From Escherichia phage ECML-123-2, in sequence record OL631480: a stretch of DNA of 64,000 nucleotides; one strand, given 5' to 3'. Both the position numbers and the translations under genes were made by a program. The notes under the pieces were generated by a model. The model was not told the origin of the DNA. It ran no database searches and was given only the letters and a program-made list of their open reading frames with translations. Shown in pieces: positions 53,727-63,994 of the stretch. The stretch's first letter is position 1. Each line of letters opens with the position of its first letter.

Positions 53727-53944
53727 GTAACCTTTAAGCAGTATTCTTCTACATGCTGTTTACGACCTTTCTTATCAATAAAGGTATATTCAACGAATGT
53801 TCCAATGTAGTCTTTATCTACATCATGCGGACTATTAATTGGACATTTAGTACGGCAAATGCGTTCCCATTGACGAATAATTACTGCCTTATTCTTTGGG
53901 TCATATGGATGTGGATAATGTATATTCATAATAACGGTTCCCAA
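53717..53944 (-). CDS. hypothetical protein
   Basis: 75-aa ORF. Confidence 0.5.
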   Translation of the reverse strand: MGTVIMNIHYPHPYDPKNKAVIIRQWERICRTKCPINSPHDVDKDYIGTFVEYTFIDKKGRKQHVEEYCLKVTWL

Positions 53945-54393
53945 TCAACAATCACAATTTCTAATTTAGAGGAATATGTATCTAAAATCCCCTCAATAAT
54001 ATCCCAGTTCCCTTTACCTATGCCTGCACCAATCCTAGGCATATAGATTGTAGGTTTAATCAGTTTATTTTCACCAAACTCATTTAATTCTAACATACAA
54101 TTCATTAAAGCGGAATACTCAAAATTTGGCCCTGGTTGAAATTGAGTATAAAGGTTGAAGCAATACGCTTTATGAGTCCTAAAGTATTTTTCATAGACTG
54201 AGTAAGAACCGAGTTTAGTTACATCACCCCATTCAGTCTGTAATTTATCAGCTTCCAAAATTTTAGGGAAAGCTTTGGTTAATTGACCCGCTACGCCTGA
54301 ACCCATAGTATGAAAACAATTGCATCCATGCGCAATATTTTTACCTTCAGCGAAAAGGGCGACAATATCGCCCTTGATATATTTTACAATCAT
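53926..54393 (-). CDS. macro-domain protein (ADP-ribose binding or hydrolysing), tk.4 position
   Basis: 155 aa; AHGCNCFHTMGSGVAGQL and IGAGIGKGNW resemble macro-domain N-x6-GG[VLI] and G-x-G motifs. Confidence 0.55.
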   Translation of the reverse strand: MIVKYIKGDIVALFAEGKNIAHGCNCFHTMGSGVAGQLTKAFPKILEADKLQTEWGDVTKLGSYSVYEKYFRTHKAYCFNLYTQFQPGPNFEYSALMNCMLELNEFGENKLIKPTIYMPRIGAGIGKGNWDIIEGILDTYSSKLEIVIVDWEPLL

Positions 54394-54731: not shown

Positions 54732-55269
54732 TTACTATTTCCAAAAGTTTATTATTTTTAAGGTAATTAGCCTTTTCTAGGACTTCAGAAGCATATTTAG
54801 AACCAGCTTTAACATTCCATCCCGAATTATAAGAGGATATTGCTTTTCTTATATCGCCCTTATGTATATTTAACCAATAAGAAAGTTCAATGTACGCCCA
54901 GGAAGCTGAATTGGACCGTTTATTCAACATTCTTTTTATTTCAGCATCGGTCATATTATAACCAAGTTCCTTGACTCTCGCTCGCATAGTAGGCAAATAA
55001 TTTTGGAACATTCCATAAGCGTGATGCTTTGGTTTAGATTTTAAATTAACTCCGCCAGAGCTTTCTTGCCATAAAATGGCTGCCATTATATGGCCTAATC
55101 CGCTCTTGTGGATGTTTTTGTGTGTTTTATATTTTCCATCCTTAGAAAATTGTTCCCCGAATTGATACGCGTAACGCATGTTATCGAGTTGGACATTACT
55201 GAAAGTATGCTCGGAGCTATGTGCCATCATTGAAATGGCCAATAGACCAGCGAGTAGTGCTTTTCTCAT
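54724..55269 (-). CDS. secreted lytic-transglycosylase-like protein (SLT domain), vs.1 position
   Basis: 181 aa with signal peptide; ILWQESSGG ... GMFQ resembles the SLT catalytic region. Confidence 0.55.
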   Translation of the reverse strand: MRKALLAGLLAISMMAHSSEHTFSNVQLDNMRYAYQFGEQFSKDGKYKTHKNIHKSGLGHIMAAILWQESSGGVNLKSKPKHHAYGMFQNYLPTMRARVKELGYNMTDAEIKRMLNKRSNSASWAYIELSYWLNIHKGDIRKAISSYNSGWNVKAGSKYASEVLEKANYLKNNKLLEIVND

Positions 55270-55276
55270 GCTTACC

Positions 55277-55738
55277 TCATTGAGTTTTAATTACTGCTTT
55301 AGAAGCCTTTCCTGGTAAACGACGACTATTGATAATTGCCATCCTGCATTGAAGCGACGGGTCTTTGAACTTCGCATTAGGTTTACAAACTGTAAATCCA
55401 AGCCAAAGATTTCCATCTGTGATTTCTAAACGTCCAGGACGGTATTCAACCCCATCAATAAAATCCTCATCAATGTCAGGACGCGGAGGCATACTCAGGA
55501 ATTCATTAACTTCTAAAACATGGTCTTTTATTTTGTGGAATAATTCAAAAACATATGTCTCATCAATCTCCCGTTGAATTGCACGATCAAGAAGATGCTG
55601 AGAATATTTTAGATGAAACGATGAGACCCCTGCTGCTTTTGATGCCTCACGAATCTCATTGTTAATTTGACGAAACTCCGACTCAAAGTGACGACGAAGC
55701 TTATTTCGACGGATAAAAACTTCTGTGTTGATAGTCAT
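55277..55738 (-). CDS. regB: RegB site-specific endoribonuclease
   Basis: 153-aa basic ORF at the T4 regB position and size. Confidence 0.7.
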   Translation of the reverse strand: MTINTEVFIRRNKLRRHFESEFRQINNEIREASKAAGVSSFHLKYSQHLLDRAIQREIDETYVFELFHKIKDHVLEVNEFLSMPPRPDIDEDFIDGVEYRPGRLEITDGNLWLGFTVCKPNAKFKDPSLQCRMAIINSRRLPGKASKAVIKTQ

Positions 55739-55765
55739 GTTATTCTCCTCTTAACTGATAGAAAA

Positions 55766-55795
55766 ATTATACCACAGTCAAGAGGAAAAGTAAAC
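55766..55795 (-). promoter_or_regulatory. T4-type early promoter for regB
   Basis: minus GTTTACttttcctcttgactgtggTATAAT. Confidence 0.5.
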
Positions 55796-55797
55796 AG

Positions 55798-56022
55798 TTA
55801 TTCTTTAAATCTAATCAATTTATTCATAGACTTTGAAACTTCGGCACGAACCTCATGTAGATTTTTGAGCTGTTCAAGACGCTGCGTATAGTAAGCAATT
55901 TCATCTTCTTCGAGACAGTCCTGTGAATCTTCTTTAAGATACCGTGCATAGTCCTGGAAAGCGTTACGGACTACTTCCTGGAAGTCATCAAGACTTTGAA
56001 TTTTCTTAGGAGCAGCAGACAC
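55798..56022 (-). CDS. hypothetical protein (vs.3 position)
   Basis: 74-aa ORF. Confidence 0.5.
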
Positions 56023-56074
56023 ACGACGAGGGCAGTATAATACTCATAACCAAACCCTGCGCTTAATTGAGCCA

Positions 56075-56341
56075 TTAGTATTTTTCCTCTGGTTGGAACA
56101 CAGCACGACAAGCCCACATACTGGCTTCTTTGAGTTTCGTTTTAGCAATAGCTAACTGATCGAGGCTTTCAGCATAATTCTTCGCGAGTTCAAAGTCTTC
56201 GCAATTATCTAGTGCTTCCCAGAATTCATCATATAAAGCATCAAAGATAAGTCCTAAACGAACTTCAGCGTCTTTAATAGCATTTACTTTACCGATTTTT
56301 TCGTCGGTATGTGGCTTATAACCTTTAATATCTTCAATCAT
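56075..56341 (-). CDS. hypothetical protein at the vs.4 position (T4 Vs.4 is reported as the cyclic-oligonucleotide sponge Acb2; assigned by position only)
   Basis: 88 to 100-aa ORF, second gene after regB; start either 56377 or internal ATG 56341. Confidence 0.45.
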   Translation of the reverse strand: MIEDIKGYKPHTDEKIGKVNAIKDAEVRLGLIFDALYDEFWEALDNCEDFELAKNYAESLDQLAIAKTKLKEASMWACRAVFQPEEKY

Positions 56342-56555
56342 ATTTGACTTCCTCACCAGTACATAAATCGTATTCAACTAAACGAATAGGTTCATGAATG
56401 CCATATCCTTGAACAGAAATTTCTGTCGTAGGATAAATTCCATTAATATCACCCATGTTCCATGCTTCGTTAAATTGCTGTTCGCCTGAATTACTAAACC
56501 ACTCGGCGAAAGCATTTAGCACATCTTCAGAACCTTCAATAATTATCTTTGCCAT
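56334..56555 (-). CDS. hypothetical protein (vs.5 position)
   Basis: 73-aa ORF. Confidence 0.5.
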   Translation of the reverse strand: MAKIIIEGSEDVLNAFAEWFSNSGEQQFNEAWNMGDINGIYPTTEISVQGYGIHEPIRLVEYDLCTGEEVKYD

Positions 56556-56917
56556 TACAAACTCTCGGTGAAGGTACGAGCGATAACGTCGCGCTGCTGT
56601 TCCGGAGTCAGAGAGTTAAAGCGAACTGCATAACCGGATACACGGATGGTCAGCTGCGGATATTTTTCCGGATGCTTAACTGCATCTTCCAGAGTTTCAC
56701 GACGCAGAACGTTAACGTTCAGGTGTTGACCACCTTCAATTTTAACTGTAGGCTGTTGCTCAATTTCAATTTCACGGGCATGCAAACCATAGAAAATTTC
56801 TGGGTCTACAAAAGAGTCCTCTTTAAAGGTTTTAGAGACAATAATTCGTGCTTGAATACCATCTTCAAAATAAATAGTACCTTTATGTGTGCCTTCAAGA
56901 ATTTGATATGCTTTCAT
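56555..56917 (-). CDS. autonomous glycyl-radical cofactor (YfiD/GrcA-like; T4 Y06I-like)
   Basis: 120 aa with C-terminal glycyl-radical motif RVSGYAV. Confidence 0.75.
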
Positions 56918-56923
56918 ATAACC

Positions 56924-57253
56924 TCAATTAGAAAATAAATTTATCCAAGATTGTTCTTTAATTAAAAATGGCTCAGAATCATATGCCATTAAACTCTGTG
57001 TGATTAGTCCTTTAAAAGGCCCATCAATAAATTCCATGGTAAAATATGGAATTTTATTCATTAGCCGTGCATTAGGAGCCGTGCACAAAACTCTGCATCC
57101 TTTGAATACGCCTTTTTGTAATTTGTATTGCTTGGGATAAAATTCGCTCAAAATGTTATTTTTTGCCAAAATTTCAAAATGATTCACCAATTTATTTTTA
57201 ATAGTTTTTGGCGAAAAATAAAGATATTCGAAAAGCTGAGTGTCTGTCATCAT
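56924..57253 (-). CDS. hypothetical protein
   Basis: about 110-aa ORF; start uncertain. Confidence 0.45.
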   Translation of the reverse strand: MMTDTQLFEYLYFSPKTIKNKLVNHFEILAKNNILSEFYPKQYKLQKGVFKGCRVLCTAPNARLMNKIPYFTMEFIDGPFKGLITQSLMAYDSEPFLIKEQSWINLFSN

Positions 57254-57837
57254 TGCATTCCGATTACGAAAAACTGTGGACGAGTAATACCACCAATGCA
57301 ACATTTAATATTACAGCAGCAGTGTACAGTGTCAATATGGACACTATAAATCTTATCCATATCAGGAGATTTGACAGGCTCATCAATTATATACAAAATT
57401 CGCGAAAGCGATAAACCTCTGAACTTGCTTCCTTTATTACCAATAAAACTGCGCACAGAATCAGTAAATAAACGAAAACGTATATCATCATTAGAATAAC
57501 GCGAAAATTCCTTTTTAATATTATCTGCGGAAATTTTAGCGTAAGCTGAAGTATTAGAAAGAACAATAACTGTTCCACCGTCATACAACCAATTAGCGGC
57601 AAAATTAGTTACTGCAGTTGATTTACCAGATTGACGCCCACCATCTAGTCGAAGTGTACAATACTGTTTAAGTAAGTCTTCAAATGGCGGGATATATTCG
57701 TTTTTACAAATTTCTTCTACTCTAGCATCAGAATGGTGTGTAAAAGCATTCATCAGGGATAGATAAGGACCAGTTAAAAATGTTCTCATTTTGTTCTCTC
57801 TAGGTTTGGGCCATTCCATGGCGCATGAATTGTCCAT
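57250..57837 (-). CDS. P-loop NTPase-like hypothetical protein
   Basis: 195 aa with GGRQSGKST Walker-A-like motif. Confidence 0.55.
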   Translation of the reverse strand: MDNSCAMEWPKPRENKMRTFLTGPYLSLMNAFTHHSDARVEEICKNEYIPPFEDLLKQYCTLRLDGGRQSGKSTAVTNFAANWLYDGGTVIVLSNTSAYAKISADNIKKEFSRYSNDDIRFRLFTDSVRSFIGNKGSKFRGLSLSRILYIIDEPVKSPDMDKIYSVHIDTVHCCCNIKCCIGGITRPQFFVIGMQ

Positions 57838-57934
57838 TTCTGTATTTACCCATTACCGCACTTGGGCTCGACCTTATTACAGGTTGGCGGGAATCCCTCA
57901 CAGAATCATGAGGTCCAGGTTATTCCCATGTTAT

Positions 57935-58351
57935 TTAAATGTAAATATTTTTGCCGTAATACTTATACCAGTGTGGCTTCATTAAAATTTTTTCATCGAG
58001 TCGTTGTTGACTCAACTTAATAGCTGATTTGCATGGATTATAATCATTTTTCCATTCTACTGGAATATCGCTGATGTCAGGAACTTCAGTATCTTTTATA
58101 CTGAACCCGCGTTTTAAGCATTCCGTTATAATGTCCGATTGACGCTTTCGCAAAAATTCTAACTTATCGTAAAAGAAAGTAACATGACCAGAACCTAAAA
58201 TAAATTTAGAAGATATTTTAAAATCTTTAACGCGCTTACCGTTTGCCACATGCTTACGAACTATACCAAAAACACGCGGCAATTCACGGTATTCTGCGAT
58301 TAAATGTTGATCAGCAAGTTCAGATACTAAAGTCAAATTAATACGAGTCAT
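57935..58351 (-). CDS. denV: endonuclease V (pyrimidine dimer DNA glycosylase) DenV
   Basis: 138 aa [29 protein letters not shown]... matches recalled T4 DenV. Confidence 0.93.
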
Positions 58352-58374
58352 TTTATCCCTCCAAGTAACTGTGA

Positions 58375-58404
58375 ATATACTATCACAATTCTAGGAGAAA
58401 GTAA
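58375..58404 (-). promoter_or_regulatory. T4-type early promoter for denV
   Basis: minus GTTTACtttctcctagaattgtgaTAGTAT. Confidence 0.5.
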
Positions 58405-58410
58405 ACAACT

Positions 58411-58941
<531 letters not shown>

Positions 58942-59397
58942 TTAAAAGAGGCTGTTCATTATTCGGTAAAGTGAAGGACCCATCACATATTGCCACTGAG
59001 TACGAGGAATAAGAGCAAAAGCATCCATCTCTGGAATCATAACGCCATCTTTATTTTCAAAATAAGACTCGCAATGGCAATTTCTAAACATCTCATGCTC
59101 TACTGGAATCGTATAATAAAATAACTGTAAGTCTTTATTACTAGAATATTTAAATACACCTAGGTCTTCTAGAAGGTCTGGATTATAATTGCTAAAACCG
59201 GTCTCTTCTAAGCATTCTCTTTTTGCAGCTTCCAGTGCATTCAAATCAGAACTTTCTACACGTCCCTTTGGAATATCCCAGCGATGTGCCATCATTCCAG
59301 GCTTACGAGAACCAGTAACCCGACCCATAAATAAATCTTTATCTTCTGTCATGAAGATAATACCAGCTGATAATGTTTTCATTTTAATTTCCTGCAT
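58942..59397 (-). CDS. nudE: Nudix hydrolase NudE
   Basis: 151 aa with Nudix box GRVESSDLNALEAAKRECLEETGF. Confidence 0.88.
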   Translation of the reverse strand: MQEIKMKTLSAGIIFMTEDKDLFMGRVTGSRKPGMMAHRWDIPKGRVESSDLNALEAAKRECLEETGFSNYNPDLLEDLGVFKYSSNKDLQLFYYTIPVEHEMFRNCHCESYFENKDGVMIPEMDAFALIPRTQWQYVMGPSLYRIMNSLF

Positions 59398-63838: not shown

Positions 63839-63914
63839 TGGTCGAGGCAGTAGGGATCGAACCTACGACCTAGGACTTAGAAGGTCCTTGCTCTTCCTTC
63901 TGAGCTATGCCCCG
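63839..63914 (-). tRNA. tRNA-Arg (anticodon TCT)
   Basis: 76 nt cloverleaf folded by hand: 7-bp acceptor stem, D/anticodon/T stems all pair, anticodon loop CUUCUAA, T-loop TTCGATC, encoded CCA. Confidence 0.85.
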
Positions 63915-63918
63915 TAAT

Positions 63919-63994
63919 TGGGGTGACCGATGGGAGTCGAACCCATGACTACGAGAATCACAATCTCGAGTTCTACCAACTGAACTACGGCCAC
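63919..63994 (-). tRNA. tRNA-His (anticodon GTG)
   Basis: 76 nt cloverleaf; anticodon loop UUGUGAU, C73 discriminator, ends ...CACCCCA like bacterial tRNA-His; encoded CCA. Confidence 0.75.

Follow-up and report, generated by a model that had tools for sequence, protein, structure and literature searches.

The best-described relative of the gene considered here is vs.4 of phage T4, whose 88-aa product is the anti-CBASS protein Acb2 (NP_049728; PDB 7UQ2; PMC10097602). T4 Vs.4 binds 3',3'-cGAMP with a Kd of ~30 nM, and its crystal structure is a hexamer holding three cGAMP molecules, with Y8 and F82 stacking on the bases, Y8, H11, K23 and R79 providing hydrogen bonds or salt bridges, and L29, F33, A66, A73 and A77 lining the hexamer interface (PMC10097602). 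The substitutions S74N, T12I and A77I, recovered in a genetic screen, inactivate the protein, and knockout of vs.4 lowers the phage titre ~50-fold on a host whose CBASS system has weakened cGAS conjugation (PMC10097602). A Kd of ~84 nM for cGAMP has also been given for T4 Acb2, which binds the same dinucleotides as the Acb2 of the Pseudomonas phage PaMx33 (PMC10312549).

PaMx33 Acb2 (PDB 8H2J, 8H2X and 8IXZ; Huiting et al. 2023, as cited in PMC10312549) binds cyclic trinucleotides as well, in a second pocket that needs R67 and T74 (PMC10312549). T4 Acb2, in contrast, binds neither cA3 nor cAAG; D61 takes the place of the essential PaMx33 residue R67, and its pocket helix is unkinked, so that Y37, A57, L60, D61 and T64 would clash with cA3 (PMC10312549). 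The D61R substitution failed to confer cA3 binding on T4 Acb2, a failure for which the authors blame mainly the helix geometry, with no kink and a smaller pocket (PMC10312549). A further anti-CBASS protein of the same phages, Acb1 (T4 57B), acts not as a sponge but by enzymatic cleavage of cyclic nucleotides, and has a fold unrelated to that of Acb2 (PMC10312549).

We analysed a stretch of 64,000 nucleotides from Escherichia phage ECML-123-2 (sequence record OL631480), hereafter the window. From synteny and size, an earlier note had guessed that the second small open reading frame counting from regB, at 56075-56377, occupies the T4 vs.4 slot and encodes an Acb2-type sponge. Along the minus strand, the window carries tk, four small ORFs, a macro-domain protein, vs, an SLT-domain protein (vs.1) and regB, and beyond regB follow vs.3, vs.4, vs.5, vs.6, two further ORFs, denV and the lysozyme gene e. 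The T4 annotation reads tk, tk.1-4, vs, vs.1, regB, vs.3, vs.4, vs.5, vs.6, vs.7, vs.8, denV. The features around the gene are the following.

55277..55738, minus strand: regB endoribonuclease (Pfam REGB_T4, E=1.4e-68), the anchor of the earlier count
55798..56075, minus strand: vs.3, between regB and vs.4
56075..56341, minus strand: vs.4/acb2 coding sequence, 88 aa plus TAA stop, ATG start; translation MIEDIKGYKPHT...FQPEEKY
56334..56555, minus strand: vs.5 (73-aa ORF), directly upstream of vs.4
next after vs.5, minus strand: vs.6, GrcA-like glycyl-radical protein (Pfam Gly_radical)
57935..58351, minus strand: denV
58411..58905, minus strand: lysozyme gene e, after denV

The order and strand of regB-vs.3-vs.4-vs.5-vs.6 are the same as in the annotation of T4 and in two close relatives. 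The count from regB was thus correct, vs.3 coming first and vs.4 next as in T4, and the gene does lie in the T4 vs.4 slot, between vs.3 and vs.5 in the early-gene block and on the same strand, upstream of regB. At the DNA level, Escherichia phage Pinarejo matches positions 55200-57400 with 99.9% identity, and 23 phage records reach at least 99% over this stretch; over 5.2 kb only four positions differ from Pinarejo, none of them within the vs.4 coding sequence. Judged by these matches, the ECML-123-2 locus is that of a Tequatrovirus, a close relative of T4. The vs.4 coding sequence is nucleotide-identical to that of "anti-CBASS protein 2" of Escherichia phage 232Ecol030PP, and tblastn hits to the protein came from 1239 phage records, with at least 99% identity in 56. 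One small difference from T4 concerns vs.5, which in T4 encodes 58 aa and lies 36 nt from vs.4, whereas the 73-aa vs.5 of the window, which has no Pfam match, overlaps the vs.4 start by 8 nt. The same 8-nt vs.5/vs.4 overlap is annotated in 232Ecol030PP and Pinarejo.

With regard to the extent of the gene, the ORF listing does contain a minus-strand frame at exactly 56075..56377, of 100 aa and with a TTG start, just as the earlier note drew it; its 5' end is the part that did not stand, the real start most likely being the ATG at 56341. The relevant elements are these.

56350..56354, minus strand: Shine-Dalgarno GAGGA within the end of vs.5, spaced 8 nt from the downstream ATG (...TGGTGAGGAAGTCAAATATG)
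56342..56377, minus strand: 12-codon upstream extension from TTG, coinciding with the 3' coding end of vs.5, with no Shine-Dalgarno
56334..56341, minus strand: ATGATTGA junction, the vs.4 start overlapping the vs.5 stop TGA (56336..56334) by 8 nt
56073..56077, minus strand: TAATG junction, the vs.4 stop TAA (56077..56075) sharing one base with the vs.3 ATG (56075..56073)

Vs.4 almost certainly starts at the ATG at 56341 and not at the TTG at 56377, because of the GAGGA Shine-Dalgarno, the N-termini of the homologues and the T4 annotation. The equivalent of this ATG is the annotated start in T4, Pinarejo and 232Ecol030PP, and the resulting 88 aa match both the length of T4 Vs.4 and the crystallised construct (residues 1-88). 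The 1-nt TAATG overlap at the other end of the gene is likewise annotated in T4 (63078) and Pinarejo. A 100-aa product beginning at the TTG would agree with the open frame, which does reach 56377, but the TTG lacks a Shine-Dalgarno and lies within the 3' end of vs.5, the annotations of Tequatrovirus phages including T4 give 88 aa and not 100, and the proteins of more distant relatives begin with the aligned Met or with a Met one position before it (M[SA]IEDIKGY), none being extended by 12 residues. We consequently rejected the TTG start, to which we assign a very slim chance, and the 12-codon extension is probably not translated as part of Vs.4.

The 88-aa product starting at 56341 was compared with known proteins and structures. 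A phmmer search against all PDB chains matched 7UQ2 ("Vs.4") over the full length with E=6.8e-54, and 84 of the 88 residues (95.5%) are identical to T4 Vs.4. The same search returned PaMx33 Acb2 ("p26") through 8H2J (E=4.4e-3) and 8IXZ (E=5.1e-3), its Y11 and K26 aligning with Y8 and K23; identity to PaMx33 Acb2 is ~25-30% in the Foldseek comparison, and the two proteins share the PF24729 family and the same helical hairpin of ~90 aa. The Pfam model PF24729 (Acb2_Tad1_hairpin) is matched with 73.1 bits, against a gathering score of 27, over its full extent (1-58). A match to PHROG 717 was also found (E=2.2e-33). Tad1 (Thoeris anti-defence 1), a different protein whose main ligands are gcADPR, shares the Pfam Acb2/Tad1 hairpin domain with the window Vs.4, and no direct match between the two was found beyond this shared model. 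PHROG 717 is the set that Jenson et al. used to define Vs.4 homologues (PMC10097602), and Tad1 follows, like Acb2, a sponge strategy in which the signal is sequestered instead of degraded (PMC10680739).

In line with these matches, a single-sequence AF2 model of Vs.4 (pLDDT 83) is a two-helix hairpin with helices at residues 13-45 and 50-81, and a Foldseek search with this monomer ranked 7UQ2 first among PDB entries (E=1.5e-8), followed by the Acb2 structures 8H2X and 8H2J. The model superposes only moderately on the crystal chains of 7UQ2 (TM 0.55), as expected when a modelled monomer is compared with chains of an interlocked hexamer. We give the model little weight: it ranks the right family first, and adds little to a sequence identity of ~95% to a crystal structure.

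The published residue data for T4 Vs.4 allow a closer comparison. The window protein retains all 13 residues with a published function, and the cGAMP-contact, helix-cap and hexamer-interface positions are identical throughout: the pocket residues Y8, H11, K23, S74, R79 and F82 are all present, as are the interface residues L29, F33, A66, A73 and A77. The only differences from T4 are E13D, C50F, F52L and T64A; the possibility that these four substitutions hit functional residues was considered, and none does. Conservation was assessed in an alignment of 41 distinct sequences (the window, T4 and 39 from IMG/VR contigs; 45-95% identity), where Y8, H11 and K23 are invariant in all 41, S74, R79 and F82 are invariant except in one frameshifted copy, and all four substitutions fall in variable columns. 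Across these 41 sequences the N-terminal IEDIKGYKPHT and the C-terminal LKEASMWACRAVFQPEEKY are almost frozen, and the middle of the hairpin varies freely. Three segments of the gene can be distinguished in this regard.

56273..56341, minus strand: codons 1-23, N-terminal segment with the dinucleotide contacts Y8, H11 and K23 and the helix cap T12 (PMC10097602)
56138..56272, minus strand: codons 24-68, hairpin body and tip, the variable part, with C50F, F52L and T64A
56078..56134, minus strand: codons 70-88 (LKEASMWACRAVFQPEEKY), with S74, R79 and F82 (ligand) and A73 and A77 (hexamer interface)

E13D sits in the N-terminal segment, yet in a variable column. Codons 70-88 are nearly invariant even in relatives that are 45-69% identical overall, and codons 24-68 carry the vestigial trinucleotide-pocket residues Y37, A57, L60, D61, A64 and T68 (pocket as defined in PMC10312549).

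Codon comparison with T4 and four close relatives gave dN/dS values of 0.07-0.18, which indicate that vs.4 is under purifying selection. These values, and its presence in 1239 phage records, mark vs.4 as a genuine gene and not an ORF arising by chance. That the copy is inactive or decaying, the substitutions or a lack of expression abolishing the sponge function, has at most a negligible probability: the frameshift seen in vs.3, directly downstream, does mean that at least one lesion or error lies nearby, but the vs.4 reading frame is intact, at least 56 phage records carry a protein at least 99% identical to the window Vs.4, dN/dS lies far under 1 and the substitutions spare every functional residue.

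Taken together, the matches to 7UQ2, Acb2 and PF24729, the fold and the residue matches bear out the Acb2-type sponge that had been guessed from synteny and size. The alignment to T4 Vs.4 and Acb2 that the earlier note had proposed gave 95.5% identity to the former and a significant match to PaMx33 Acb2, so that similarity to Acb2 is present in sequence and structure, the opposite of the lack of similarity that would speak against the guess. We hold with great confidence that 56075..56341 is a T4-type vs.4/acb2 gene whose product, by near-identity, would be a hexameric cGAMP sponge blocking CBASS.

The ligand range of this product can be approached through the residues of the two pockets. The window protein keeps Y37, A57, L60, D61 and T68, and its only pocket difference from T4 is A64 in place of T64. 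The feature of the trinucleotide-binding subgroup (PaMx33, JBD67), namely the equivalents of R67 and T74, is represented in the window protein by D61 and T68. On this alignment Vs.4 is not a member of that subgroup, because the R67 equivalent is absent, and a dinucleotide-only spectrum is expected because D61 is kept where PaMx33 Acb2 has R67. ECML-123-2 Vs.4 thus probably does not bind cyclic trinucleotides, like T4 Acb2.

A different reading of the same residues would accept Vs.4 as a true Acb2 orthologue and see in the D13/F50/L52/A64 allele a ligand spectrum shifted from that of T4, with weak trinucleotide binding or an altered affinity for 2',3'-c-di-AMP. T64 is among the T4 Acb2 residues that would clash with cA3 (PMC10312549) and the window has the smaller Ala there, as does PaMx33 Acb2 at the aligned position (A70); moreover, Acb2 homologues are known to vary in specificity, some of them binding 3'cADPR. 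However, the position of the essential PaMx33 R67 is still Asp (D61) in the window, even D61R gave T4 Acb2 no cA3 binding, helix geometry being blamed (PMC10312549), and the dinucleotide pocket is unchanged, all of which leave this reading quite improbable. It is similarly improbable that T64A, in the collapsed trinucleotide pocket, together with C50F and F52L at the hairpin tip, changes the spectrum so that, for instance, less of the decoy 2',3'-c-di-AMP is captured or some cA3 binding is left. If it did, natural vs.4 alleles would be a record of a sponge-versus-decoy arms race. The preferred reading remains that of a sponge with the dinucleotide spectrum of T4 Acb2.

Regarding expression, vs.4 lies within tightly packed, overlapping genes of the same strand, with no terminator-like site between them on that strand. 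A scan of 55200-58500 for sigma-70-like promoters gave 10 sites against 11.4 in shuffled sequence, and a terminator scan of the same region gave 2 terminator-like sites against 1.6; both scans are uninformative because the counts are close to those of shuffled sequence. We infer the expression of vs.4 from its operon context only, because the promoter scan stayed at the shuffled level. A stem-loop at 56110-56127 lies within the vs.4 coding sequence, on its antisense strand, and was taken as chance. A search of the whole window against Rfam matched two tRNAs at its far end only, and nothing near vs.4.

Several observations concern the neighbouring genes. In vs.3, the window has GGG at 56030-56032 where relatives have GGGG, and the resulting frameshift breaks the gene in two: a stop at 55971 ends the N-terminal piece after 34 codons, and the remaining 74 aa are read in a different frame; Pinarejo and 232Ecol030PP have an intact vs.3 of 92 aa. 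None of the 482 phage records matching that 71-nt stretch has the 1-nt deletion. Next to 55739, immediately upstream of the regB start, the window is again one base, a T, shorter than Pinarejo; this indel falls in the regB-vs.3 intergenic region, which also contains a promoter-like site, TTTACT-17-TATAAT (55794..55766, minus strand). The occurrence of two single-base indels in 5.2 kb otherwise almost identical to Pinarejo suggests sequencing error; for the vs.3 frameshift, a private mutation or pseudogene is the other reading.

On the far side of vs.4, an ORF of 126 aa as listed is found at the vs.7 position (56924-57304, minus strand), for which relatives annotate 109 aa, and it overlaps the ORF at the vs.8 position (57250-57837, minus strand). 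The latter measures 195 aa as listed, compared with 189 aa (570 nt) in Pinarejo, 179 aa (540 nt) in 232Ecol030PP and 219 aa (660 nt) in T4. The two form a variable, uncharacterised pair, and no Pfam matches were found for either. Missing at 58352-58410 are the internal-protein genes ipII and ipIII, whose place in T4 is between denV and e; here denV is directly followed by e, as in 232Ecol030PP. On the other side of regB, the tk.4 homologue (53926-54393, minus strand) is a macro-domain protein (Pfam Macro, E=3e-6) that is labelled "phosphatase" in T4; a macro domain encoded among phage early genes could target signals or modifications based on ADP-ribose.

The window ends with two tRNA genes, Arg-TCT and His-GTG (63839-63994, minus strand). 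The tRNA cluster of 232Ecol030PP begins with Arg and then Asn, so that the tRNA complement differs between these close relatives. The second anti-CBASS gene, acb1 (57B), was looked for in the window and is absent from it; in 232Ecol030PP, acb1 lies ~2 kb past the position equivalent to the window end, which falls in the tRNA cluster.

The findings presented here fit a model in which the 88-aa Vs.4 product would fold into a helical hairpin and, by near-identity to T4 Vs.4, assemble as an interlocked hexamer in which three pockets lie between pairs of protomers. One 3',3'-cGAMP or related cyclic dinucleotide would be clamped in each of them, held by base stacking of Y8 and F82 and by hydrogen bonds and salt bridges from Y8, H11, K23 and R79. 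The messenger made by the host CD-NTase, a cGAS-like enzyme, would in this way be sequestered and not degraded, CBASS effectors such as the phospholipase CapV would stay inactive, and the phage would complete its cycle. We infer hexamer assembly, ligand affinity and anti-CBASS activity for ECML-123-2 Vs.4 because the protein is nearly identical to proteins with measured binding, T4 Vs.4 differing from it at four non-critical residues.

The same property may carry a cost. T4 Acb2 binds 2',3'-c-di-AMP, the decoy of the Panoptes system, and thereby triggers Panoptes, and phage escapers map to acb2, including F82C (PMC12657218). By analogy, a phage carrying vs.4 is predicted to be sensitive to Panoptes hosts, on which Acb2 would be a liability.

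The gene, its family, structure, ligands and mechanism are already known, having been published in 2023-2025, and the value of our results lies in correct annotation and not in new biology. In this regard, most deposited T4-like relatives still label vs.4 a "hypothetical protein", and in MT968995.1 (Escherichia phage vB_EcoM_WL-3) the identical Vs.4 protein, at 58821-59084, stands under a "putative pyrimidine dimer DNA glycosylase" feature, probably the denV label set in the wrong place. Naming the gene Acb2 helps to predict which hosts with CBASS or Panoptes are open to infection by the phage and which are not.
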